From an uncultured Lentisphaerales bacterium (GTDB lineage Bacteria > Verrucomicrobiota > Kiritimatiellia > RFP12 > JAZUKQ01): DNA of 30,746 nucleotides. The position numbers were made by a program, and so were the translations under genes. The notes beneath the pieces are model-generated. The model was given only the letters and a program-made list of their open reading frames with translations. It had not been told where the DNA came from and made no database searches. The stretch is from contig CAZMGQ010000003.1 in the NCBI GenBank assembly GCA_964565855.1, forward strand, positions 1 through 30,746, given 5' to 3'. The first letter of the stretch is position 1; every line of letters begins with the position of its first letter. This document shows, one piece after another, positions 7,742 to 30,711 of the stretch.

Positions 7742-10447
7742 TTATTTGGCATCCAGGAAGCCTTCGAGCCTCCGGATACGCGTGGGGTGACGCAGCTTGC
7801 GCAGAGCCTTGGCTTCAATCTGCCGGATGCGTTCGCGCGTCACACTGAACTGTTTGCCGACCTCCTCCAGGGTGCGTGAATAGCCGTCGGTAAGACCAAA
7901 ACGATGGTCGAGCACCTGACGCTCACGTTCTGTGAGGGTATCGAGCACCTCGTGCAACCGCTCCCGCAACATGCTGTAGGCGGCCATTTCCGAGGGGTTT
8001 TCGGCGGATTTATCTTCGAGGAAGTCGCCGAAGTGGGCATCGTCGCCATCCCCGACCGGACTCTGCAGCGAAATCGGCTGCTGAGCCATTTTGAAGACGG
8101 CCTTGACCCGTTCGACGGGGATTTCCATCTCTTCGGCCGCTTCTTCGGGGGTGGGTTCGCGCCCCAGCTCCTGCACGAGCTTTTTCTGCACACGCATGAG
8201 CTTGTTGATAGTTTCGATCATATGCACCGGAATACGGATCGTACGGGCCTGGTCGGCGATCGCTCGCGTCGCAGCCTGTCTGATCCACCAAGTGGCATAG
8301 GTCGAAAACTTGTAACCGCGCCGATATTCAAACTTCTCCACCGCCTTCATCAGGCCGGTATTGCCTTCCTGAATCAGGTCGAGAAAAGAGAGGCCGCGAT
8401 TCATGTATTTTTTGACGATGCTGATGACCAGGCGCAAGTTGGCCTCAACCATTTCGGTCCGGGCCTGCTGCCCCTCGCGCATCGCGGTACGCAGCTCTTC
8501 AAACTCCGACATGAACTGTTCACGCGGCATCATGAAGCAGCTTTCAATTTCGGCGGCAACTTTGCGGGCCTCGGCGATCTGCATGTCGCGCCGCTTGCTG
8601 CGACGCTGCTTGCTGAGACGCTCGATTTCGCCCGTCTTGTAACGGTATTGTTTGAAAATCTGTTCATCGGCCTGCGCAGCCATCGATTCGATAACCTTTT
8701 GCTTAAAGTTCAACTCCTCGCACAGGATACGCAGGTCATCGCGCAATGCATCGAGATTGCGCTGGTGTCGCGCGGCATCGGCCGCCTTGCGCCCGGCAGC
8801 AGCCGAAGCGCGGAACTCTCGTTCGATCTTGCCCTGGTGCTTGACAAGCTCACTCTTGAGACGCGGCAGCAGCTCCATGTATGCTTCGCGACTGTCGATA
8901 TACTTGTCGGCCACGATACGGTCAAAGCGTTCTTCCCCGGTTTCGATGCGGGCAATCAGATCAAGGTGCATCCGGGTCGCAAATCCAAAACGGTTGAAAA
9001 GAGCCCGGATGCTCTTTTCCGAGTCCTCAATACGTTTGCAGATCTCCACCTCCTGCTCACGCGTCAGCAGGGCCACCTGGCCCATCTGATGCAGATACAT
9101 GCGGATGGGATCGTCAAAATAGTCTGGCTTGGCCGCCTTGGAGGCGTCCGCAGTTTCCGTTTCACTGCGATATTTGTCAACGTCCGCAGCATCAATGATG
9201 TCGATGTCCATGCTGCGCAGGTTGTTCAGATACTTCTCGATATCGGTATCTTTGATAATGCTTTCCGGCAAAGCCTCATGAACATCCTCGAAGGTCAGGT
9301 ACCCCTGTGCCTCGGCGAGGGTGATCAGTTCGCGGATTTTTTCATTTCTTTCTTCACGCCGCTCTCGCTCGGCCGCAATTTCCGGATCCAGATGTGCATT
9401 TTCGGGCAGTTCAAACTGATAGGTGTCCTCTACACCGTAACCATGGTCATCGTCAGGGTCAGGGGAGGCCACGCGCAGGGTGGAGACAGTCTCGTCATCC
9501 TCGTCTTCCTCATCGTCGAAATCACTGTCCAGAACATCGTCAACATCTTCCAGCCCGCTTTCAGCAGCCGCCAGGTCGTCCTCACTCGGCTCTTCTTCAG
9601 CGTCGGGATCAATGTCGATATCCTCGATATCGTCAACCTCAATGTCATCAACACCGTCAGCATTGTGGTCCAGATACTCATCGACCTCAACCGATTCGAC
9701 ATCCGTCGCAGCTTTCTTGCCCTTGGGTGTCGCAGGTGCAGTTGACTTGTCACTGGTTTTCTTGCGAGTGGTACTGGCGGCAGGTTTGGCTTTGGGCTTT
9801 GTAGCTGGCTTAGTTGCTTTGGTTTCAGTCTTCGGCGCAGCCTTGGCTTCGGCAGCAGGCTTTTTGGCAGTAGTCTTATTACTTTCCGCGACTGTTTTAC
9901 CAGTTGATTTAGCTGTAGCAGGTTTGCTGGCCGTCTTGGCATCTTTTGCTTTGGCTGCAGTTTTGTCCGGTTTGGTGGCGGCCTTCGCAGACGACTTGGT
10001 TTCAGCCTTGGCTTTCGGCGCCGCCTTGGTTTTGGCAGCGGGCTTTTTGGCAATAGTCTTCTTGCTCGCAGCGGCTGTTTTACCGGTTAATTTAGCTGTA
10101 GCTGGCTTGCTGGCCGTCTTGGCAGTTTCAGCTTTTTTGGGTGCAGCTTTGGCTGGTTTGGTAGCGGCCTTCGTAGTCGACTTGGTTGCAGCCTTGGTTT
10201 TCGGCGCCGCAGCCTTGGCTTTAGCAGTGGATTTTACCGCAGTAGCCCTCTTTTTGCTTGCCGCAGTTGTTTCAGCTGCTGCCGGTTTGCTTGCCGTTTT
10301 GGTGGTTTTTGTTTTGGCAGTAGTTTTCTTCTTGCCGGTGGCAGCAGCTTTGGTGGCACTGCTGCTTTTGGTTCCAGTCTTCTTTGCAGTGCGGCTGGTT
10401 GCCTCACTGGTCTCTGTGTTTTTGTCAGTTTTTTTGGCTTTAGCCAT
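7742..10447 (-). CDS. rpoD: Primary RNA polymerase sigma-70 factor with long K/A/T-rich and acidic N-terminal extension
   Basis: Region 1.1 ([21 protein letters not shown]), 1.2 ([11 protein letters not shown]), 2 ([13 protein letters not shown]...[15 protein letters not shown]...RTIRIPVHM) and 4.2 ([31 protein letters not shown]). Confidence 0.97.
9832..10210 (-). repeat. In-frame imperfect tandem duplication (about 183-186 bp unit) in the rpoD basic tail
   Basis: AAPK-coding anchor TCGGCGC(C/A)GC starts at + strand 9832, 10015 and 10201 (offsets 183 and 186). Peptide units both contain KAATKP...[15 protein letters not shown]....K.T.AKKPAA. Confidence 0.85.
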
Positions 10448-10511: not shown

Positions 10512-11477
10512 TCAGTCGATTACCTTGTCGGGCAGGTCACGTCCTCTGACGAGTAACCAGCCCACATTTTTAGTACCCTTGGCTGCTCCGTCTTCGGTTT
10601 GTACGTTGCGAAACATTTTTTCGATATGTCCATCGGTGAAAATTACTAAACTCCAGGGGATTTCCTTTTTTTTGCTGTCACGCAGTTTGATTGGTCCATC
10701 GTGGTAGCCCCCGATCCCCGGCACCTTGTTTTCCTCGATATCGTCCACCACTTCGGTGCGGTGTTTATCCTCCACATTCAGCACACAGTTTTTCCCGATC
10801 ACATTGCTGTCAGTCCAGGGCACACCCGAATGTTCGGCAAACAGCACGAGGCGGCTGGCGTTGGGGATAACGTTCTTGGTAACGTTGCCGTCAGTAACTT
10901 GCGTCGTTTCTTTGGTTCCAATCCAGGAGATTTTGCGACGATGCCAGTTTTTACGAGTTTCTTGATAGAAAAATTCGTTCATCGCATAGGTCAGATAAAC
11001 ACGATCTTTTCGTTCCGTGGCACCGACTTTTTTACGAAACACTTTATCATGTACTGCAACCGGACAAGCGTAAGCCGATACCTCTCCCTGCATGTAGGCG
11101 AATAACGTTCCGTTCGTTATTCCGCGCAGCGCATCTCTGCCGAAATGGCCTGCGTCCCTCATGTTGGGCTTTTCAGGATTAACTGACGGACGTCTCGGGA
11201 AGGCCGTGCCTTTATCAGGCAGCCATGAAATCCACCCCCTGAACTCATGCCAGCCGTTATGGTTCTGCAACTCAAAAGAACCGGCTCGCGGCATGCTGCC
11301 GGCATGGTCCACTGCATGGGTATGGGCTGCACTTTGCAGGTTTTTAAGGTTCATCCGGCAAGTTGCCTCGCGCGATGAGCGCAATGCTCCCAGAAGCCTG
11401 GGTGCCACCAGGCCGAGCAACACGAGAATGATGGTGATGACAACCAGCATCTCTATGAGTGTGAAGGCTTTACGCAT
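10512..11477 (-). CDS. Prepilin-type N-terminal cleavage/methylation domain protein (DUF1559-like, PVC type)
   Basis: [18 protein letters not shown]-terminus, ...TCRMNLKNL segment, YAMN motif and C-terminal H-Xn-DG (YHDG...VIFTDGHIE). Confidence 0.85.
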
Positions 11478-11703: not shown

Positions 11704-12261
11704 ATGAGCAAGGTTGATTCGGCCAAAGATTTGGTGCGCCGTCTTAAGCACGATCCGGATGAAGCTTCCGTGGGTCTCCTGCTGAAAACTTACGGTCCGC
11801 GTCTGTTCGGTGCTGCCATGGGTCTTTGCGGCAATACGACAGATGCCGAAGATCTGGTGATTATGACATTGCAAAAAGCCGTGCATAATATTGCCGGGTT
11901 CCACGAGCAATCGTCGCTCTTCACCTGGTTGTACGGTATCCTCTACAATCAGCACCTCATGCTGCGGCGCAAATATGCCCGGTCGCGCATGATCTATGTT
12001 GACCAACTGCCTGAAACCGCCGACGAGAGCGTCGCGCATCCGCTCGAGGATATCGCCGCCTCCGAACGTGCAAAGGAGTTGCTGGCGGCAATCGACCAGT
12101 TGCCGGAAACCATGCAGGATGTGGTGCGGTTGCGCTATTTCGGTGAGATGAAAATCGCCGATATAGCAAAAAATCTCAAAATACCCGTCGGGACGGTCAA
12201 GTCACGCCTTTTCAACGCCTTGTCGCAGTTGAAAAGCTTCTTGTCGACCACTTCAAATTAA
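11704..12261 (+). CDS. ECF (extracytoplasmic function) RNA polymerase sigma factor
   Basis: Start moved to MSKVDS. Region 2 DAEDLV...SLFTWLYGI; region 4 IDQLPETMQDVVRLRYFGEMKIADIAKNLKIPVGTVKSRLFNA. Confidence 0.93.
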   Translation: MSKVDSAKDLVRRLKHDPDEASVGLLLKTYGPRLFGAAMGLCGNTTDAEDLVIMTLQKAVHNIAGFHEQSSLFTWLYGILYNQHLMLRRKYARSRMIYVDQLPETADESVAHPLEDIAASERAKELLAAIDQLPETMQDVVRLRYFGEMKIADIAKNLKIPVGTVKSRLFNALSQLKSFLSTTSN

Positions 12262-12315
12262 ATTTTTGAAAAAAATGAACCTTTTGCACTGACCCTGCAA
12301 CTAACTGTTGAAAGG

Positions 12316-14586
12316 ATGATTATGATTTGCAGAGACTGCCGCATTGCATGTTTTGACCTTCTGGATGGGACGATCAGCCCCGGACTGGAAGAAAAGGTGA
12401 CTGCTCACCTTGAAGCATGTGCCGGTTGCAGACTGTTTCTGGAGGAAGAAAAAGAGCGTCTGGGGAATTGGCCGGAACTTGTTGCGGAACTCCCGTCGGC
12501 CCCCTCCTTCTTTACGTCCGAAGCAAACATCAAGCGCATACTGCATGGAGAAGCAGCGTCCGACAGTGAGAAGCCACTGCCGCAGCAACGTCTTGCCAAC
12601 CTGTGGTCGCACTTGGGCAAAATGCGCAAAATTGCAGCAATCCTGGTTATCGCAACCATGCTTTCACTGTTCTCCTGGGCTTCGATCAAATTGGCAAGAG
12701 CGGTTTTCGGCCGCTCCAAAGACCCGGGCGAACGAGTTGTTCAGGTGGAAAGCAGCCCGATGGTGACGGAGTCAGAGCCCGTCACGCCCGCAACATCGGT
12801 GGCTGATTTCACGCCTGTAGAAACCGGTGCGGGTTACACTGGAGACTTGTCTCCTCTGGACCCGGAACCGGGCAGTTATGGAGCAATCGCTTCGCATAGT
12901 CAATCAAGTCTGGAAGGAGACTTCGGGATGAAAATGAACCGGATGGTTACAGCAGGGGCAGTCGCCGCCATGATAGCCGCGACATCAACAAATGCCGCAA
13001 TATTCACGGGTGTTTCCGGCTATGACTGGAGTCAGCCATTAAACTGGAGCACGGGTCTGGTGCCGGATGCAAATGAAGACGCGATCATCGGCACAACGGC
13101 GCCTGCCGGTGCTTTGGACCCGGCGGTCCAACTGAATGCGGGAGCCACTGGCACGGCCAGGAGCCTGACGATCGGTCAGGAGGCCGGGGCGGGCGGGAGT
13201 CTGACCGTCAACAACACGAGACTCGAATTACTGGCGGGCGATTCCTTTGTAGGCAAGTCCGGCGAGGGTAGCCTGACTGTGACAAACAACGGACAACTCA
13301 ACGGTGGCAAGATCACCGTCGGGAGTGTGAAAAACTCCAAGGGTGAACTCGTGATTGCCAATGGTGCCAGCTTCAATCCCGGCAATACCGTTGTAATTGC
13401 CGCGGCAGGGAGTGGCAGCCTGCTCGTTTCGGGTGGGTCGCTCAACTCGGCTGACTGGGGGCTGACCGGGGCTTCAACCGTCGGCGGCCAGGCGGATATT
13501 CTATTTGACGACGAGGCGGAGGCAACGCTCAAAAACATCCTGCTGGCAGGCTGGGGCGTTAACTCCAGCGCTGAGCTGACGGTCGATGGAAACTCGACAG
13601 TCGATGTGCTCGAAACACTGACTCTTGGCAACAGTGTCGGATCGGTGGGAACAGTGGTTTTCAAGTCGGGCACCTGGATTCAAAAAGGTATCAGCTATGT
13701 TGGCAACAAAAAAGATGCCAGTGGCTCGGTGCACTTGCAGGGCAGCGGATTTCTGCCACGAAATCAGGTATGGCTGGCGTCCGAGGCCGGTAGTTCGGGG
13801 TTGATTGAGGTTGCCGACACCTCTCTGATGTGGACAAATAACATTGCCACTGTTTATGTCGGACATTCGGGTGAGGGTCAGTTTAATGTCGTTGACAGCA
13901 GCCTGACGATCCGCCCGGCGCTGTTGTACGTCGGCAATGCCGCCACGGCCTCGGGTTTGTTCAATATGTCCGGTTCGGATGTCACCAACCAAACCACGAT
14001 TGTCGGCAGCACTGCCGGCAGCTCCGGCAGAATAACCCAAACCGGCGGCAGCCTGACGGTCAATGACTACTTCCGTGTGGCGGCCAACGGGACAGGCAGG
14101 TATCTCAGCAGCGACGGTGTTTTCAATGGCAGATGGGTGCAGATTGCCGCTTATGGCAGCGGTACTACGTCAGTGGGAGCCGTGGAGCTGTCCGGTACCG
14201 GGAGAGTCTTCAATGTTTCCGGCAGCCTGGCCGTTGGCACGCAGGGAAGCGGCGGCCTGACAAACCGGGTCGCCCAGTTGGCGGGCGGTATCGATCTGGC
14301 AGCCTCGACAACGCTGACGGTCGGCAATACGGGCAATATCCACATCCAGTTTGAGGAGGATCCGGTCGAGACAGGCATGTACTGGGGCCTGCGCTGGACT
14401 GGCGACCATGTTGCCGAACTGATCGCTTTGAGCGAGACGGTTCCCGCCAAACTGAGCTGGGATGTCGAGGGTGTCAATCCGTATTACCGGCCGGATGTCG
14501 GCATCCACTACGATGGCGACTTTACTTATGTGGGCATTCCCATTGCCAAGTTTGCCACCAACCCCACGCTGATCATTATCAACTAA
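12316..14586 (+). CDS. Zinc-finger (ZAS, zf-HC2-like) membrane anti-sigma factor fused to a secreted autotransporter-passenger-like repeat protein
   Basis: HLEACAGC (HxxxCxxC) plus N-terminal Cys; TM KIAAILVIATMLSLFSWASI; P/S/T/E linker; second signal-like segment MKMNRMVTAGAVAAMIAATSTNA; VG..G.G.L.V beta-strand repeats; ends PTLIIIN. Follows the ECF sigma gene. Confidence 0.85.
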   Translation: MIMICRDCRIACFDLLDGTISPGLEEKVTAHLEACAGCRLFLEEEKERLGNWPELVAELPSAPSFFTSEANIKRILHGEAASDSEKPLPQQRLANLWSHLGKMRKIAAILVIATMLSLFSWASIKLARAVFGRSKDPGERVVQVESSPMVTESEPVTPATSVADFTPVETGAGYTGDLSPLDPEPGSYGAIASHSQSSLEGDFGMKMNRMVTAGAVAAMIAATSTNAAIFTGVSGYDWSQPLNWSTGLVPDANEDAIIGTTAPAGALDPAVQLNAGATGTARSLTIGQEAGAGGSLTVNNTRLELLAGDSFVGKSGEGSLTVTNNGQLNGGKITVGSVKNSKGELVIANGASFNPGNTVVIAAAGSGSLLVSGGSLNSADWGLTGASTVGGQADILFDDEAEATLKNILLAGWGVNSSAELTVDGNSTVDVLETLTLGNSVGSVGTVVFKSGTWIQKGISYVGNKKDASGSVHLQGSGFLPRNQVWLASEAGSSGLIEVADTSLMWTNNIATVYVGHSGEGQFNVVDSSLTIRPALLYVGNAATASGLFNMSGSDVTNQTTIVGSTAGSSGRITQTGGSLTVNDYFRVAANGTGRYLSSDGVFNGRWVQIAAYGSGTTSVGAVELSGTGRVFNVSGSLAVGTQGSGGLTNRVAQLAGGIDLAASTTLTVGNTGNIHIQFEEDPVETGMYWGLRWTGDHVAELIALSETVPAKLSWDVEGVNPYYRPDVGIHYDGDFTYVGIPIAKFATNPTLIIIN
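12914..12930 (+). promoter_or_regulatory. Internal in-frame ribosome-binding site and start codon
   Basis: AAGGAG (12914-12919), 8 nt spacer, ATG at 12928 (codon 205 of the 756-aa ORF), followed directly by a signal-peptide-like sequence. Confidence 0.6.
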
Positions 14587-14589
14587 AGA

Positions 14590-17500
14590 GTGTCCCTGAT
14601 GCGCTTGATATCCGGCCCGGTCACAGGGGTCTTGTTGATGCTGGCCTGTTTGTCTGCCGGACAGGCCGGGCAGTTTACAGTCATGCAGGCTGAAGAACGC
14701 CGGCAGTTGGTCGTGGCGGCCGAGGCGCCGGACGGCAACGCAGCTGCTAAAGTCGCGTGGGAGATTCCGGGGGGTGGGGTGGGGTCATTCAAGATGACTC
14801 CCGCCATTCCTCTCCTGCCGGGGCAGAAGTCGCAGGTTGTCTCACGGCTGTTTCTGCCTCCGGGGTGCGGCCTGAAGTCGTTCAACCTGCGGGTGGAAGA
14901 CATCTCCGGCGAGACTTTTCAGTACTACCGTCTGCTGCCAGCGGGGGCCGAAGGCTGGATCAGCCTCACCAACACAATCGACACGGCCCGGCCACCTGCA
15001 AAGGCCAACTGGGGAGGCAATAACGATGCCGTTATGGACTCCCCGCTCTCGGTCTCAGGCATCGGTTTCGAGTTTGATCCGCTTGTTAGGAGTGGTCACT
15101 TCTTCTTTGATTTTGAGCAGCCGGTTCTGCTGTCGGCCGCGCCTCCAGGCGTTGCAGTTTCGCTGACGGATGACAAAATAAAGCCGCTACTGGTGGCTGC
15201 AGCGGACAGAAAACAGTCCATGACCGTCGGAACAGTGGCGGGAGATAGCCTCAGCCTGATCGTCAGAAAAAACAGGGACGGTACCAGAAGCTTCGACCTG
15301 ATATTGACTGCTGAATCGCAGGTGGAGGAGTTCGGCGGTGCCCTGTTCATGGTCAGGATCTATCTGCCTGCCCCGGGGGTTCTGAGTAATCTCCGACTGA
15401 ACCTCAAAAATGCCGCGGGTGAACATTACGCCTTCGAACAGACTCTTTCCGGTCAGGCTGGCGGCTGGCAGACAGTCGCATTTCCTACCGACGGTGCGCT
15501 CCGCAGTCCCTTGCGCAAAAGTGGTCCGGCCTCAAATAACGGTTCGCTCTTCCCGCTGCGGCTGCATTCGCTGGCGGGGGACTTCCGCACTCAGGAGACC
15601 ACGGAGGACTGGATTGCCTTCAACAAGCTTGAGTGGGCCTATCTGCCTGCGCGCTTGAAGGTCGATTTTGTCGCCGGCAATGAGATCAACATAGTCGATA
15701 CCGGCAGGCAACAAACCCTCGGCTGGCGCATCACAAATCCCCGCAGCGGAGCCCTGGCTGCGAGGTTGCAGTATGTCGCAAAAGACATCTACGACAGTAT
15801 AGTCGCCTCCAATACCGTCCCTTTGAACCTGGATGCCAGGTCCGAAACTTTTGTCGGGCTGCCGATACCTGACAAGCAGGGTATCTACTACGTCGAGACG
15901 TCATGTCTGGAAGAGGACGCCGTCGGTCCTGCTGCCATCGGTAAATACCGTTTTGCCCATGTCGTGCCAGCCGGTCCCCGTACCCGTAAAAAGGATGATT
16001 TTATTTTTGGAGTCTGTTCGCATTCACAGTGGAAAACTCCCGCAGAACAAAAACTGCATGCGCTGGCCGCTTCTATCTGCGGCGTCAATGTCCTGCGTGA
16101 AGATTTTTTATGGGAGCGCATGGAGCCGCGTCAGGGCGAGTGGAATTTTGCTTACTTCGACAGTGTTTTGGATACGTTCAAGGAGCGCGGCATCGAAGTA
16201 GCACCTCTTTACTGTTACCGTCCCGATTGGGCCGTCGCCAAGGACTGGAAACCACTCAATCCCGGGTCCGAACGCGGCAAGCGACCGGACTATCAGCATT
16301 GGGCGAACTTCGTGCGAATGGTCGCCACCCGCTACCATGAGCAAATCAATTTTGTCGAGATCTGGAACGAGCCGGACCTGATGGGGTATGCCAACTTCCC
16401 GGTTGAAGAATATATAGAGATGATGCGAATCGCCCATAGCGAAACAAAGAAAATCGCACCGGAGGTCACGGTGCTCACCGGTGGCTTTACCATGATGCCG
16501 CCTTTTTACAACATGGTCGATCCACGTCACATGGAGAAAGTTCTGGTTAACGGAAAAAGCTTTTACGACATCCATGCATTTCACGTGCATGGGTCGTATC
16601 TGCACTACAAAAACCAGATCGAACAGATGCTGGCATTGCGTCAGCGCCTCGGTACCGAAGCTCCCTGGTGGGCCAATGAAACTGCCATCACGGCGACCGG
16701 ATTCGGCGAATATGTGCAAGCTGTAACGCTGATACAAAAACTGATTTTCACCTGGGCCCGTGGCGCAATCGGCTACAACTGGTTTTCGCTCTACAATGCC
16801 GGCGGCAACCCCGATTATGGCGAACACAACTTCGGGCTGCTGACACGCGAACTGCATCCCAAGGCCGCTTTCTGCACCTACAACACGACCGCCCGTCTGC
16901 TGGCCGGTGGGCGCTTCCTGGGGGATTTCGATCTGGGACGTGATCTGGACGCCTTCCTTTTCAAGGCTGAAGACGGCAGTTATGTAATCGCCTGCTGGGG
17001 CAACACCAGTTTGCAGTATCCGGCCGTCATCCGCAATATCAGGAATGCTGTCGGCATGATCGATATTTTCGGCAACGAAACCATGCTCGAACCTTCTGCC
17101 GGTGTAATATTCTTTGAAGTCGGTGCCGAACCAAGATTCATCAGAATCAGCGGACAGGACAGCGTGCCAATCGTAGGAATTCCGCCGATACAATTCCCGC
17201 GTCAGGTCGAACTGACACTCAGCAGGGTCGAAACGATCAGCCTGCCGGTCCATAACCCGTTTGATGCGCCTGTTGCAGTTACAACTTCGGTCCAGTTGCC
17301 GGAGGGCATGACGACGGTGACGCCTGTAATTGAGCGGCAGCTCGCCGCTGGTGCAACCGCCGTGATTCAGTTTGTCTGTAAAGTCGATCCGGTTTTCCGC
17401 TCTTACGGCAACCGGAAGCAGTCGCTCAAAGTTCAGGCAAGCTTTGCCGATATCTGGTCGAAGACTGTCGATGTCGGGATATTGTCAGCAACTGCCATTC

Positions 17501-18114
17501 CGAGGTCCGAATTCGCGGATGAGCCGCAACTGATCCTCGACAACATTTCTCAGCACAGAAGTTTGATCCCCAATGCGCCTGATCTGGAAAATCTCCAATG
17601 GTCTGGTGCCGGGGACCTCAGCGCAAAAGTCTGGCTGGCCTACAAAGCCGATTCGCTGTCGCTGAAGGTTGAAGTGCTCGATGATCAGCATGTGCAGAAG
17701 CATGTGGGTGGAGACCTGTTCAATTCCGACTCGATCCAGATCGCAATCCAGCCGCCCGAGGCGCCGGATTTCTGGGAAATCGGCGTCGCCTGCGGCAGAG
17801 AAGGCGAGAGTCTGAGTCATATCTGGATGACCCCGAAAGGACTCGACAAGAGTGAGCTCGCAAAGAGTTTGGCCTTTGAAACACGCCGTGATGAAGGTCG
17901 CAAAGTCACAACTTACATCATGATTGCTCCCCTGAAGGAGTTAGGTCTGACGGATGCCCTCAAGGGGCGGCAGATCGGGTTCAATATCCTGGTCAACGAC
18001 AACGATGGCGGTGTGCGCGAAGGTTACCTGGAGTTTTCCCCCGGACTTGGCGCAACCAAAGATGCGTCATTATTTCTGCGCATGCAGTTCGAAGGCACGC
18101 CGATTGCTCCGTAA
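14590..18114 (+). CDS. Secreted multidomain glycoside hydrolase, clan GH-A (GH39/GH5-like) with C-terminal CBM9-like domain
   Basis: Signal peptide (...LLMLACLSAGQA); VLREDFLWERMEP..GEWNF; EIWNEPD (acid/base); WANE (nucleophile); FGLL; C-terminal DLSAKVWLAY...VLDD...DSIQIAI...GFNILVNDNDG. Start may be GTG 14590 or ATG 14599. Confidence 0.75.
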   Translation: MSLMRLISGPVTGVLLMLACLSAGQAGQFTVMQAEERRQLVVAAEAPDGNAAAKVAWEIPGGGVGSFKMTPAIPLLPGQKSQVVSRLFLPPGCGLKSFNLRVEDISGETFQYYRLLPAGAEGWISLTNTIDTARPPAKANWGGNNDAVMDSPLSVSGIGFEFDPLVRSGHFFFDFEQPVLLSAAPPGVAVSLTDDKIKPLLVAAADRKQSMTVGTVAGDSLSLIVRKNRDGTRSFDLILTAESQVEEFGGALFMVRIYLPAPGVLSNLRLNLKNAAGEHYAFEQTLSGQAGGWQTVAFPTDGALRSPLRKSGPASNNGSLFPLRLHSLAGDFRTQETTEDWIAFNKLEWAYLPARLKVDFVAGNEINIVDTGRQQTLGWRITNPRSGALAARLQYVAKDIYDSIVASNTVPLNLDARSETFVGLPIPDKQGIYYVETSCLEEDAVGPAAIGKYRFAHVVPAGPRTRKKDDFIFGVCSHSQWKTPAEQKLHALAASICGVNVLREDFLWERMEPRQGEWNFAYFDSVLDTFKERGIEVAPLYCYRPDWAVAKDWKPLNPGSERGKRPDYQHWANFVRMVATRYHEQINFVEIWNEPDLMGYANFPVEEYIEMMRIAHSETKKIAPEVTVLTGGFTMMPPFYNMVDPRHMEKVLVNGKSFYDIHAFHVHGSYLHYKNQIEQMLALRQRLGTEAPWWANETAITATGFGEYVQAVTLIQKLIFTWARGAIGYNWFSLYNAGGNPDYGEHNFGLLTRELHPKAAFCTYNTTARLLAGGRFLGDFDLGRDLDAFLFKAEDGSYVIACWGNTSLQYPAVIRNIRNAVGMIDIFGNETMLEPSAGVIFFEVGAEPRFIRISGQDSVPIVGIPPIQFPRQVELTLSRVETISLPVHNPFDAPVAVTTSVQLPEGMTTVTPVIERQLAAGATAVIQFVCKVDPVFRSYGNRKQSLKVQASFADIWSKTVDVGILSATAIPRSEFADEPQLILDNISQHRSLIPNAPDLENLQWSGAGDLSAKVWLAYKADSLSLKVEVLDDQHVQKHVGGDLFNSDSIQIAIQPPEAPDFWEIGVACGREGESLSHIWMTPKGLDKSELAKSLAFETRRDEGRKVTTYIMIAPLKELGLTDALKGRQIGFNILVNDNDGGVREGYLEFSPGLGATKDASLFLRMQFEGTPIAP

Positions 18115-28623: not shown

Positions 28624-30711
28624 ATGAATCAGACGTTTCTGTTTAAGTTTTCCAGAGCTGTTGTTTTGGCGACAGCCGTTCTGCTTGGCTTTTCTGCCCG
28701 GGCGGACGACTCTATTGTACCAATGGACACTTCGACGGCTTGGGTGAGTGCCCAGAGTGGCGACTGGGATGACTCTATGACCTGGAGTCCGGAGGGAGTT
28801 CCGGCCGCAGGCGACAGTGTCTCTATTCTCAAGGATCACAAGGTAACGGTTCTTACCCAGACCGAACGGGTCGCTGACCTGGAGGTCAAGGCCAAGGGCA
28901 CGCTCTCTTTTGACGGTTGGGACTCGCTGCTGCAGGCGGATACTGTGGCGATTTATGGCACGGTAACCCACGAGCCTAACACAGCGGACGAGCCTGACGA
29001 ATATGGCGAGTGGATTCCGAATGCCCGTGTCAATATCGACTGTGCATCGTTGATGGTTGCCGCCGGTGGCATAATCAATGTCAACCAGATGGGCTATGGT
29101 CCAGAGTCCGGCCCCGGCGGAAGCGACAATACTGGTGTTGGAGCTGGTTACGGAGACAATTCCTACTACGCAACCGCCACAAGAGGGCTTGCATACGGTT
29201 CATACCTCGAACCGGTTGATCCCGGCAGCGGTGGTACAGCGGGATCTGGTGGTGGAGCCGTACGGATAAACGCAACGGGTGCCGTAGTGGTGGAGGGAAT
29301 AATCACCTCCAATGGGGCCGGATCGCGCCATAATAGCTCCAGCAGTTCCGGCGGATCGGTTTATATAACTTGTGAAACCATTGCCGGCTCCGGCACGATC
29401 AGGGCCAACGGTGGTACCTATACGGGCAATCATCGCAATAATGCTGCAGGCGGTCGTATTGCCGTGATTTACGATGCAGAGGAGCAGAGCGAAATTGCAC
29501 TGCCAGACCTGATTTTGTCCGTGGCAGCGAATCCCAGGGGAATCGGGACGCTTTATACAACCGACAACCAGTTTATCACACGTGCAGGTGGCGAAATCAG
29601 GCACACCGGCCAGTGGATGACGCCGGGACTCACCGAATGGAGTCCGGACAGCATCACGGCACAGAATGTTTGGTTCAAGTTTGTCAACCCGGGGATGGTT
29701 CTCAACATACCCGATGATATCACCGTCACGGGCTCGAACTTTTATCAGCACAAGCTGGAGTTTGTCGATGCTATCATCGAATGTGGCGGGGATATAAACG
29801 TCAGCAAAGCATCTCTCGGTGTCTTACGCTCCGATACACCTGTCAGACCCTTTAACAAAGTGGCAGTTGCCGGCGACATCATCCTGCAAAACTCGGCGAC
29901 CATGAATTTCGAAGCAGGAGTAACCAATGCTGTCGCACCCGACAGCACTTTGTTTGTCGAGACGCAGAACCTGACACTGGGCGAAGGCTGCATCGTCTAT
30001 CCGGTGGCTGAACCGGTCACCGGAGGCACGGTCAAGTTCCGCGTGACTAATCTGATACTGGCCGACACGGCCTCGATCAACGCCTCGAATCGTGGTTTTG
30101 GCGGAGGCGTGGACGGTCAGGATGGTTATGGTCCGGGTGGCGGCATGGCCAAGACTGGAAATATATCTACAGGCGGCGGTCACCATGGTGGCCGGGCAGG
30201 GACCGGCGGCGACCGGACTTATGGACTGGCACACTATCCTTATCAGCCCGGTAGTGGTGGAGCCAGCCACGATATCGATGTAACCGGCTCCATGGGAGGC
30301 GGTGCTATCATTATCGAGGCCCGCCAGCTAGTGGATATCGGTGGTGGAAAATTGCTCGCTGATGGTGAGAGGGGCTATCACGGCTCTACCTATGCCGGTG
30401 GATCCGGTGGGTCAGTGCTCGTCTCCTGCCGCTCTTTCCACGGCTCCGAGGGTGCTGTTGTCAGCGCCGATGGAGGTAATGGCAGTGGTGGTGGCGGCGG
30501 TGGTGGCGGACGCATCGCCATCTGGGAAAAAGTGCAGCAGCCCTTTATCAGGTTTTCGCTCAGTGATGGCGAAGAGTTGGCGGAGCTGGAAAACTATGCC
30601 GGCAGCGTGAGTGTTGCGCCCGGCACCAGCACAAGTGGAGGAACTGCACATCCGGGCACCATCATGTTCCTCGCGAGCAAACCGACCCAGACGCTGATTA
30701 TTATCCAGTAA
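28624..30711 (+). CDS. Secreted glycine-rich repeat protein (G8-like N-terminus, two Gly-rich modules, C-terminal TLIIIQ)
   Basis: Signal peptide ending FSARA; SGDWDD..TWSPEGVPAAGDSVSI; duplicated PGSGG...GGG(A)(V/I).I...SGGS(V).....GG..GGRIA module. Confidence 0.8.
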   Translation: MNQTFLFKFSRAVVLATAVLLGFSARADDSIVPMDTSTAWVSAQSGDWDDSMTWSPEGVPAAGDSVSILKDHKVTVLTQTERVADLEVKAKGTLSFDGWDSLLQADTVAIYGTVTHEPNTADEPDEYGEWIPNARVNIDCASLMVAAGGIINVNQMGYGPESGPGGSDNTGVGAGYGDNSYYATATRGLAYGSYLEPVDPGSGGTAGSGGGAVRINATGAVVVEGIITSNGAGSRHNSSSSSGGSVYITCETIAGSGTIRANGGTYTGNHRNNAAGGRIAVIYDAEEQSEIALPDLILSVAANPRGIGTLYTTDNQFITRAGGEIRHTGQWMTPGLTEWSPDSITAQNVWFKFVNPGMVLNIPDDITVTGSNFYQHKLEFVDAIIECGGDINVSKASLGVLRSDTPVRPFNKVAVAGDIILQNSATMNFEAGVTNAVAPDSTLFVETQNLTLGEGCIVYPVAEPVTGGTVKFRVTNLILADTASINASNRGFGGGVDGQDGYGPGGGMAKTGNISTGGGHHGGRAGTGGDRTYGLAHYPYQPGSGGASHDIDVTGSMGGGAIIIEARQLVDIGGGKLLADGERGYHGSTYAGGSGGSVLVSCRSFHGSEGAVVSADGGNGSGGGGGGGGRIAIWEKVQQPFIRFSLSDGEELAELENYAGSVSVAPGTSTSGGTAHPGTIMFLASKPTQTLIIIQ

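Follow-up and report, generated by a model that had tools for sequence, protein, structure and literature searches.

Class I ZAS anti-sigma factors of the RseA and RsiW type are controlled by regulated intramembrane proteolysis. The RsgI/SigI systems of Clostridium thermocellum employ anti-sigma sensors that bear the same types of carbohydrate-binding module (CBM) as the enzymes they control, and CheA-L/S and ClpB exemplify isoforms generated by internal initiation. For RsiV and RsiP, signal peptidase serves as the site-1 protease (PMC4183432, PMC8844934). Alternative in-frame starts have been mapped by retapamulin Ribo-seq (bioRxiv 10.1101/520783), and the "gene-in-gene" Fha of Vibrio cholerae is a case of in-frame internal initiation (PMC13389060). 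Also described are a sigma/anti-sigma hybrid, IutY (PMC5411451), and extracytoplasmic function (ECF) sigma factors with C-terminal transmembrane (TM) extensions (PMC7826278). Here we analyzed a 30,746-nucleotide stretch of DNA from an uncultured Lentisphaerales bacterium (the window), in which a single open reading frame (ORF) joins an anti-sigma head to a β-helix protein, termed the cargo, that has its own Shine-Dalgarno (SD) sequence, start codon and signal-peptide-like segment. This is probably a dual-product ("gene-in-gene") ECF anti-sigma gene, which would supply the same cargo in two forms, one tethered as a sensor and one secreted and free.

An earlier note, made from the letters of this stretch, had described a zinc finger, a TM helix and a linker rich in Pro, Ser, Thr and Glu, followed by a secreted-protein gene within the same frame. 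This order is borne out by Pfam, hydropathy, charge and an AlphaFold model (Table 1). As the note had stated, no stop separates the two halves of the single plus-strand ORF, the lengths of 756 residues for the whole and 552 from Met205 are correct, and AAGGAG stands eight nucleotides ahead of the ATG at 12928. The second ATG of the ORF, at 12322, is the start used by the gene callers and by the orthologues and is likely the true one; it gives 754 residues that begin with MICRDC, but residue numbering throughout follows the 756-residue form. The remaining two frames are closed inside the linker, where their ORFs end at 12766 and 12806.

The N-terminal head carries the zinc-binding ZAS motif H31-x3-C35-x2-C38, the Cys and His residues of which are invariant among orthologues. 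The ECF sigma gene lies 54-60 nucleotides upstream of the anti-sigma start, and the same pairing is found in all related loci. Zinc motif and adjacency to an ECF sigma gene were the two tests applied for membership, and on both the head falls within the class I ZAS (zf-HC2) ECF anti-sigma factors, with sigma inhibition predicted. The AlphaFold model of the fused protein (mean predicted local distance difference test score, pLDDT, 75.9) has a helical head with helices over residues 6-57, a long TM helix at 94-131 and disorder over 132-214. Residues 215-222 form a short helix at low confidence outside the folded domain, and the confident β-helix starts where cleavage is predicted, at residue 227. 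The disordered linker is also the leader of the nested gene.

The DNA just 5' of the internal ATG reads ggAAGGAGacttcggg-ATG in the window. Its SD ranks in the top 1.5% among window positions and is the strongest within its own linker. It is on par with the strongest genuine starts of the window, which range from -9.0 to -10.9 kcal/mol (a pyridoxal-phosphate enzyme, -9.0; a pseudopilin-like gene, -9.5; a secreted 695-residue protein, -10.9), and it exceeds the SD ahead of the anti-sigma start itself, which scores -5.7. From the internal Met the protein reads MKMNR-MVTAGAVAAMIAATSTNA-AIF, which comprises a positively charged n-region and an h-region and places small residues at positions -3 and -1 (T-N-A before A), as expected for Sec signals. 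This second hydrophobic stretch is only marginally hydrophobic (mean Kyte-Doolittle hydropathy across 19 residues, KD19, 1.47; apparent free energy of insertion as a simple sum, dGapp, +3.7), as would suit the h-region of a signal peptide better than a helix that stops transfer. In the stand-alone paralogues P0007, P0009, P0010, P0012, P0069, P0074, P0097 and P0099, the alignment to the internal Met starts at residue 1-13; each has its N-terminal signal peptide at that position, followed by the common motif F..G.W....NW..G.P. The nested part is thus, by alignment, a complete member of a secreted family. Together with the n/h/c anatomy seen in 17 of 17 relatives, these N-termini support the signal peptide proposed in the note; we predict a Sec signal peptide that is probably cut after TNA227.

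Full-length fused orthologues were returned by a database search (P0002, 81% identity, 753 residues; P0003, 47%, 755 residues), and an exhaustive profile search added P0004, also full length with 773 residues; the distant orthologues P0003 and P0004 are 47-49% identical to the window protein. The orthologue contigs come from four other independent assemblies and bear the same operon of sigma gene, fused gene and a 1173-residue gene. The fusion itself, claimed in the note as one gene, is real and conserved at both levels of identity. Among the distant orthologues the linker is only about 15% identical, yet every indel in it is a multiple of three. The ratio of nonsynonymous to synonymous substitution (dN/dS) is 0.59 in the linker, 0.3 in the head and 0.10-0.17 in the β-helix cargo. 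In-frame indels and the dN/dS of 0.59 together indicate that read-through of the linker is maintained.

Despite the variable surroundings, M205-K206 is invariant across the orthologues. The DNA 5' of the internal ATG reads agAAGGAAtccttccc-ATG in the P0002 locus and aAAGGAAccagaa-ATG in the P0003 loci, and AAGGA is kept 7-9 nucleotides ahead of the ATG in all three lineages. Its codon phase shifts, from gaa-gga (Glu-Gly) to aag-gaa (Lys-Glu), and conservation of AAGGA in differing phases points to selection acting on the RNA, not on the protein. Synonymous sites are saturated between the orthologues that retain these internal elements. The note had held that its reading would fail if homologues lacked the internal SD, Met and signal; in the orthologues checked, all three are conserved.

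The same arrangement recurs with unrelated cargos. A profile search and two locus scans found many further zf-HC2 heads joined to unrelated C-terminal domains in metagenome-assembled genomes of Kiritimatiellia and Lentisphaeraceae; among the fused cargos are BspA-type LRR with FecR, F5/8-type-C with PATR, and short peptides of 64-90 residues. The genome and metagenome scans used one narrow peptide pattern and returned 8 and 19 loci, respectively; a word-indexed head search gave mostly short or truncated proteins. In all 17 fused proteins a net acidic linker is followed by Met (once Val, encoded by GTG) and a Lys/Arg n-region, then by 13-40 uncharged residues, a small-residue end and Asp or Glu, as in ...NGEET-MNIKKRSAVALAMALSATSIAMA-EE.

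At the DNA level, 13 independent loci with differing cargos were compared. A strong SD precedes the internal start by 5-9 nucleotides in all 13, in varying codon phases and encoded by varying residue pairs (EG, KE, EE, GE, GG), and translation would start at ATG in 12 of them, at GTG in the other. The SD energies lie between -5.7 and -11.1, compared with means across the genes between -2.2 and -4.1 (Fisher p 1.3e-9); they average -8.3, compared with -3.9 when acidic linkers alone serve as the reference (Mann-Whitney p 1.7e-7). Moreover, positions -20 to +20 of the mRNA have unusually little structure in 12 of these loci (Fisher p 4.8e-11). The SD test is not circular, because the tested positions were picked by protein features and not by the SD. 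On this comparison of sequences the internal start looks functional. The note had suggested a survey of zf-HC2 anti-sigmas for an SD ahead of an internal Met and signal; in the present comparison these elements recur in no fewer than 13 independent fused genes, whose cargos are unrelated.

Among these relatives are mini versions of 194-237 residues (L033 2513-7086; L039 1988-3576), which consist of a head, a TM helix, a linker of 14-58 residues and the nested start, and whose cargo is merely a tailed peptide of 64-90 residues. In the two loci with enough flank, they adjoin downstream genes of FGE-sulfatase type (L033) and GDSL-lipase type (L033 and L039). A second sigma pair in L039 has a conventional short anti-sigma and was set aside as irrelevant to the nested design.

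A two-gene equivalent of the arrangement occurs in one group of relatives (Table 1). The order in these orthologous operons is sigma gene, fused gene, (free gene) and a gene for a Tat-signal protein. Separate free genes, each with its own signal peptide, stand directly downstream of fused genes that have no internal start, and in L005 and L006 the free gene matches the tethered domain with E values of 1e-127 to 1e-143. At each of 10 nested loci, the next gene bears no relation to the cargo. A common deletion of about 120 residues marks the clade of the tethered copies, and the free copies make up a second clade; the nested copy (L023) is full length and is placed between the two clades. The start was lost where a free paralogue is present, which indicates that both a tethered and a free copy are kept and that the nested start is a single-gene route to the free copy. 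In addition, the start-less relatives of 859-872 residues indicate that TM1 alone suffices for exporting the tethered domain, so that the second signal is unneeded in the long form.

Cargo and head can also be exchanged as units. In the P0100 cargo family (F5/8-C) the junction reads NQGE(V/T/S)E-MNIKQK...AASALSAASLAAA/EERIWTG. This cargo is found behind two kinds of zf-HC2 head, behind non-zf heads (P0181, P0183), behind a complete ECF sigma factor with a TM helix (P0179, P0180, P0182) and stand-alone, without any head (P0184, P0185). Comparison of the sigma-headed L041 with L042, which has another head, showed that nucleotide homology starts about 35 nucleotides 5' of the ATG, and the shared leader is A/C-rich and contains the SD. 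With its boundary upstream of the ATG, the mobile unit comprises leader, SD, ATG, signal peptide and cargo, and it must remain in frame with whichever head it joins. The note had offered a modular cassette as an alternative; this fits, since one cargo with a leader of about 35 nucleotides, SD and ATG occurs on four head types as well as stand-alone.

The sigma-headed fusions (L041 5001-8831, encoding P0180; P0179; P0182; partial genes at L042 1-729 and L044 1-549) represent a one-component, membrane-tethered sigma factor with TM helix, linker and nested SD-ATG-signal-cargo cassette. Their neighbors include more sigma fusions, one with Laminin_G_3. In L045 (329-1134), a one-nucleotide deletion in a G-run shifts the frame of the linker and ends the head ORF at an ATGA that overlaps the internal ATG; unless the deletion is a sequencing error, the two parts are split and translationally coupled. 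L037 (760-1550) and L038 have an in-frame TGA within the head. The roughly 190 nucleotides that start just past the G-run and end at the internal ATG have one difference between L045 and L037, whose heads and cargos differ.

A candidate promoter lies between the sigma and anti-sigma genes. Its motif has the consensus GAAC[CT]TTT-N13-14-GCAACT[TAG]AC (core also written GAACYTTT-N13-14-GCAACTNAC) and is unique in the window, where the one match, against 0.02 expected, stands solely ahead of the anti-sigma. It occurs at the equivalent position in 27 loci (for example, L001 9954-9982 and L005 5957-5985), and 10 of these loci have another copy ahead of the sigma gene (for example, L005 5331-5359). 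A second head subfamily has GAACG-N17-CGTCTAA at the equivalent position. We infer that the site at 12277-12305 acts as the cognate ECF promoter, and the leader predicted from it is about 10-12 nucleotides long. With so short a leader, initiation at the head could be expected to be weak and that at the internal site stronger. No sigma-70-like site was found within 12316-12930, and the sole ECF motif in the window lies elsewhere; a separate transcript from a linker promoter was rejected on these grounds.

We propose that the ECF-type promoter would drive a sigma-dependent mRNA with a very short leader, which also encodes the downstream glycoside hydrolase. Initiation at 12322, probably at a low rate, would give the full-length membrane protein in low abundance. 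Its cytoplasmic ZAS domain would hold the ECF sigma, and TM1 and the acidic periplasmic linker would bear a tethered β-helix outside the cytoplasm. Independent initiation at the internal SD and ATG (12914-12930) would yield a 552-residue precursor with a Sec signal peptide, and cleavage after TNA227 would give a free exported β-helix protein with a C-terminal sorting-type tail. The tethered copy would be the sensor arm of the anti-sigma and the free copy the effector, both co-expressed with the glycoside hydrolase. In the favored signalling step, the tethered copy would meet the ligand, partner or sorting route of the free cargo, which would trigger regulated proteolysis and release of the sigma. 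The step would resemble that of the RsgI/SigI sensors, although the protein does not belong to their family. Both the relative amounts of the two products and the signalling step are what we infer from the arrangement.

Table 1. Features of the window, and relatives with nested, decayed or deleted internal start (relatives in coordinates of their own loci).
Feature	Position	Strand	Remarks
ECF sigma factor gene, 185 aa from ATG 11704	11704..12261	+	Pfam Sigma70_r2 and r4_2; TIGR02937, 88 bits
ECF-type promoter candidate, GAACCTTTT-N13-GCAACTAAC	12277..12305	+	between sigma stop and anti-sigma start
Whole fused ORF, anti-sigma::cargo	12316..14586	+	756 aa from first ATG; uninterrupted
zf-HC2 / ZAS core, residues 5-39, HLEACAGC	12328..12432	+	Pfam PF13490, 24.3 bits (cut-off 22.2)
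TM1, single membrane-spanning helix, residues 104-126	12625..12693	+	KD19 2.18; summed dGapp negative
Acidic disordered P/S/T/E linker, residues 127-204	12694..12927	+	pLDDT <50; net charge -7
Small local RNA hairpin	12908..12929	+	partly covers internal SD and AUG
Internal Shine-Dalgarno AAGGAG	12914..12919	+	8 nt before ATG; -9.4 kcal/mol versus anti-SD
Internal start codon, Met205	12928..12930	+	M-K invariant in orthologues
Signal-peptide-like segment MKMNR / MVTAGAVAAMIAATS / TNA, residues 205-227	12928..12996	+	n/h/c anatomy; paralogue alignment
Cargo: right-handed β-helix and C-terminal "WGLRW" domain	12997..14550	+	TIGR04393 x3 (T5SS/PEP-CTERM-associated repeats)
C-terminal "WGLRW" domain, ~130 aa, residues ~610-745	about 14143-14550	+	YWGLRW motif
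C-terminal tail ...KFATNPTLIIIN, candidate sorting tag	14551..14583	+	low AlphaFold confidence
Downstream operon gene, secreted glycoside-hydrolase-like, 1171-1174 aa	14590/14599..18114	+	weak Pfam GH42, GH39, GH10; CBM9_1
L023, fused gene of 1032 aa	5001-8099		internal start present, GGGAAGGAGcaggag-ATG, MTTKSTLSAVLAAGVVAATGTQA/EELFYSATG; no separate free-cargo gene
L005/L014, fused gene of 872 aa with the free gene after it	L005 6001-10602		start a decayed remnant without Met or n-region; free gene of 634 aa
L006/L018 and L008/L016/L020/L021, fused genes of 859-860 aa with the free gene after each	L006 6001-10417; L008 881-5446		start deleted; free gene of 584-633 aa where intact

Several observations weigh against two products from this gene. 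The case for two proteins from the one ORF is drawn from sequence conservation, and the signal peptide was called on anatomy and homology rather than on a dedicated predictor score. The bare AAGGA-N5-10-ATG pattern has 5 matches in the window against 5.6 expected; being as frequent as chance predicts, it was rejected as stand-alone evidence, and the case for the internal start goes beyond chance because of the comparative evidence. The window is also the sole locus of the 13 without an unstructured start region, its hairpin partly occluding the SD and AUG. A 40-nucleotide stretch that includes this hairpin and another small stem has a folding energy of -11 kcal/mol (z -2.5 versus shuffles), but neither L004 nor L001 conserves the hairpin, and so it is missing from the 81% orthologue. 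Codons for Lys, Asn and Glu, being A-rich, could account for part of the low-structure signal. The anti-sigma fusion is conserved without the internal start in the relatives of 859-872 residues, where the start is dispensable for anti-sigma function, and the two-gene form is confined to one clade and may reflect a single evolutionary event. Lastly, in relatives with short linkers of 14-24 residues, TM1 could pair with the second segment as a hairpin, and the C-terminus of the long form would then stay inside the cell. As a separate observation, the hairpin of the window might couple internal initiation to translation of the head.

One rival is a single-product explanation, in which the protein is an ordinary single-pass anti-sigma with a large periplasmic β-helix sensor, and the SD, ATG and signal are idle leftovers of an old fusion to a secreted-protein gene downstream. 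Homologous fusions conserved without an internal signal, the visibly decaying signal of L005, the commonness of the bare SD-ATG pattern and the hairpin over the SD in the window all speak for it. However, idle leftovers would hardly persist between orthologues with saturated synonymous sites and a linker of about 15% identity, with the SD kept through shifts of codon phase and GTG as the lone substitute for ATG. A strong SD in all 13 independent loci, open mRNA in 12 of them, a cassette boundary that takes in the leader, and the coincidence of start loss with a separate free copy likewise argue against it, and we regard it as unlikely.

Quite unlikely too is that the long form alone matters, with the internal AxA serving as a site-1 cut that frees the cargo and starts intramembrane proteolysis. 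AxA-like sites followed by Asp or Glu are conserved in 17 of 17 fused proteins, and RsiV and RsiP offer a precedent for signal peptidase in this role. However, with TM1 inserted N-terminus inside, the Lys/Arg n-region would lie in the periplasm, and substrates of signal peptidase I need it in the cytoplasm. The site stands about 100 residues past TM1 and not directly after it, and it is absent from the relatives of 859-872 residues. Conservation of the SD, of the start codon (including GTG) and of open mRNA would be left unexplained as well. The internal signal-peptidase switch that the note had drawn for the full-length protein thus finds no support, its n-region being on the wrong side and the sister clade working without an internal signal. 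Such cleavage could operate alongside internal initiation, but is less likely as the main mechanism.

It is very improbable that the second hydrophobic stretch is a membrane helix that leaves the β-helix in the cytoplasm. The protein does have two hydrophobic segments, and a helical hairpin is the naive prediction for the short-linker relatives. However, the second segment is weakly hydrophobic with a positive dGapp, T5SS/PEP-CTERM repeats mark the domain as an extracytoplasmic type, its stand-alone paralogues are secreted and in some cases carry PEP-CTERM, and the relatives of 859-872 residues export the homologous domain via TM1 alone. Least credible is an assembly artefact that joined two genes through a missed stop or frameshift: the G-run deletion of L045 shows that split forms or errors mimicking them occur, but an identical open frame in four other independent orthologue assemblies and dozens of related fused genes, with all linker indels in frame, rules out such an error here.

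The cargo is modeled with pLDDT mostly above 90 across residues 227-745, and the final residues 745-756 are of low confidence. Foldseek against the PDB gave weak β-helix matches alone, to the TibA and Ag43 passengers (best E 2.8e-3), and matches this weak allow no functional assignment. The YWGLRW motif of the C-terminal domain occurs in 60 of 149 relatives, and the domain ends many otherwise different β-helix proteins. An extreme C-terminal tail of the form G/P-T-hhhh-R/Q is found in 46 of the 149, compared to 0.5% of internal positions. Neither Pfam nor NCBIfam has a model for the "WGLRW" domain or for the tail. A similar tail, G/P-T-(4-5 hydrophobic)-R/Q/N/K, also ends the window ORF 28624..30711, an unrelated secreted G8-domain protein (...KPTQTLIIIQ). 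The tail sits where distant relatives have PEP-CTERM and is a candidate undescribed sorting tag. A PEP-CTERM end is present in P0097 and P0099, two distant relatives of the stand-alone type; the window protein ends in ...NPTLIIIN, without the PEP motif, TM helix and basic cluster of such an end. Pfam and NCBIfam revealed no β-barrel translocator domain, just the passenger-type repeat TIGR04393, and Pfam matched neither a FecR nor an RsiV-type domain in the window protein. FecR is present in some relatives, as Pfam showed for P0050, and L011 and L023 have a similar long segment after TM1 that may be of this kind.

The glycoside-hydrolase-like gene downstream (14590..18114) has a signal peptide and is not a paralogue of the cargo; its counterpart follows the fused gene in L001-L003. 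On the other side of the sigma gene, and divergent from it, the window encodes a prepilin-type N-methylation-motif protein of 321 residues with a very strong SD (10512-11477, minus strand). Pseudopilin-like genes may be linked to the export route of the tailed proteins. Farther out lies an RpoD-like primary sigma factor of 901 residues with regions 1.1-4 and an unusually long N-terminal extension of about 360 residues (7742-10447, minus strand).

Kiritimatiellia are important in anaerobic glycan turnover, and our literature searches turned up no regulatory mechanism for this group. More tentatively, and with considerable doubt, we suggest a general design of "cargo-tethered regulators" in Kiritimatiellia and their relatives. 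A movable cassette, made up of a short leader, SD, start codon, signal peptide, secreted protein and C-terminal sorting tail, would sit in frame behind a membrane regulator head, anti-sigma or sigma. Free and tethered copies would both come from one mRNA, and the tethered copy would report on ligand, self-association or tail-dependent sorting and so set sigma activity for the same operon; the two-gene version would be the subfunctionalized equivalent. Reuse with many cargos beside glycoside hydrolases, sulfatase-maturing enzymes and lipases suggests that this might be a main control logic of Kiritimatiellia polysaccharide-degradation loci. If two products are indeed made, ECF signalling would be wired in a new way, with sensor and secreted effector encoded by the same codons and split by the choice of start codon. 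It would also be a clear comparative-genomics case of internal initiation that switches a bacterial protein from membrane-tethered to exported. Gene callers annotate the long ORF alone, so the free secreted proteins would be absent from predicted secretomes. The promoter motif offers a handle on the regulon and the C-terminal tail a handle on the sorting route.

The note had not recognized the architecture as a described class, and we found no description of it in the searchable literature: no report of an anti-sigma or sigma factor that hosts a complete secreted-protein gene, and nothing linking Kiritimatiell* to anti-sigma factors, the term "extracytoplasmic function" giving unrelated work only. 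The design appears undescribed, although in-frame internal initiation as such is already known. Among the systems nearest to it, the autotransporter passengers TibA and Ag43 and the PEP-CTERM β-helix proteins share the repeat family (TIGR04393) and the right-handed β-helix with the cargo, but the window protein has neither barrel nor PEP-CTERM and ends instead in the "WGLRW" domain and the G/P-T-hhhh-R/Q tail. Like IutY and the C-terminally extended ECF sigmas, the relatives P0179, P0180 and P0182 are single chains that run from a complete ECF sigma through a TM helix to an extracytoplasmic domain, and they carry the nested cassette in addition; the window protein, by contrast, is a separate anti-sigma.

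Compared to class I ZAS anti-sigmas of the RseA and RsiW type, the window protein has the same HxxxCxxC domain, a gene that follows the ECF sigma gene, one TM helix and an extracytoplasmic C-terminus. It differs in that a whole gene for a secreted protein, including an SD, a start codon and a predicted signal peptide, makes up the extracytoplasmic part, and in the ECF-type promoter between sigma and anti-sigma. With RsgI/SigI it shares a sensor domain akin to the regulated secreted proteins and an operon linked to a glycoside hydrolase. However, the N-terminal domain of RsgI is different, and its sensor and effector are separate genes, whereas here one set of codons apparently encodes both. 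RsiV and RsiP likewise have a signal-peptidase-type site in the extracytoplasmic part of the anti-sigma, but theirs lies directly after the single TM helix and is unmasked by ligand. The window protein lacks a cleavage site in that position; its second signal-like segment stands about 100 residues on, behind an SD and a start codon. Finally, as in other isoforms made by internal initiation, a second in-frame SD and start would give a shorter C-terminal product. In the present gene, however, the shorter product would gain a signal peptide and change compartment, the long form would be a regulator of transcription, and the nested unit belongs to a mobile cassette that serves many cargos.

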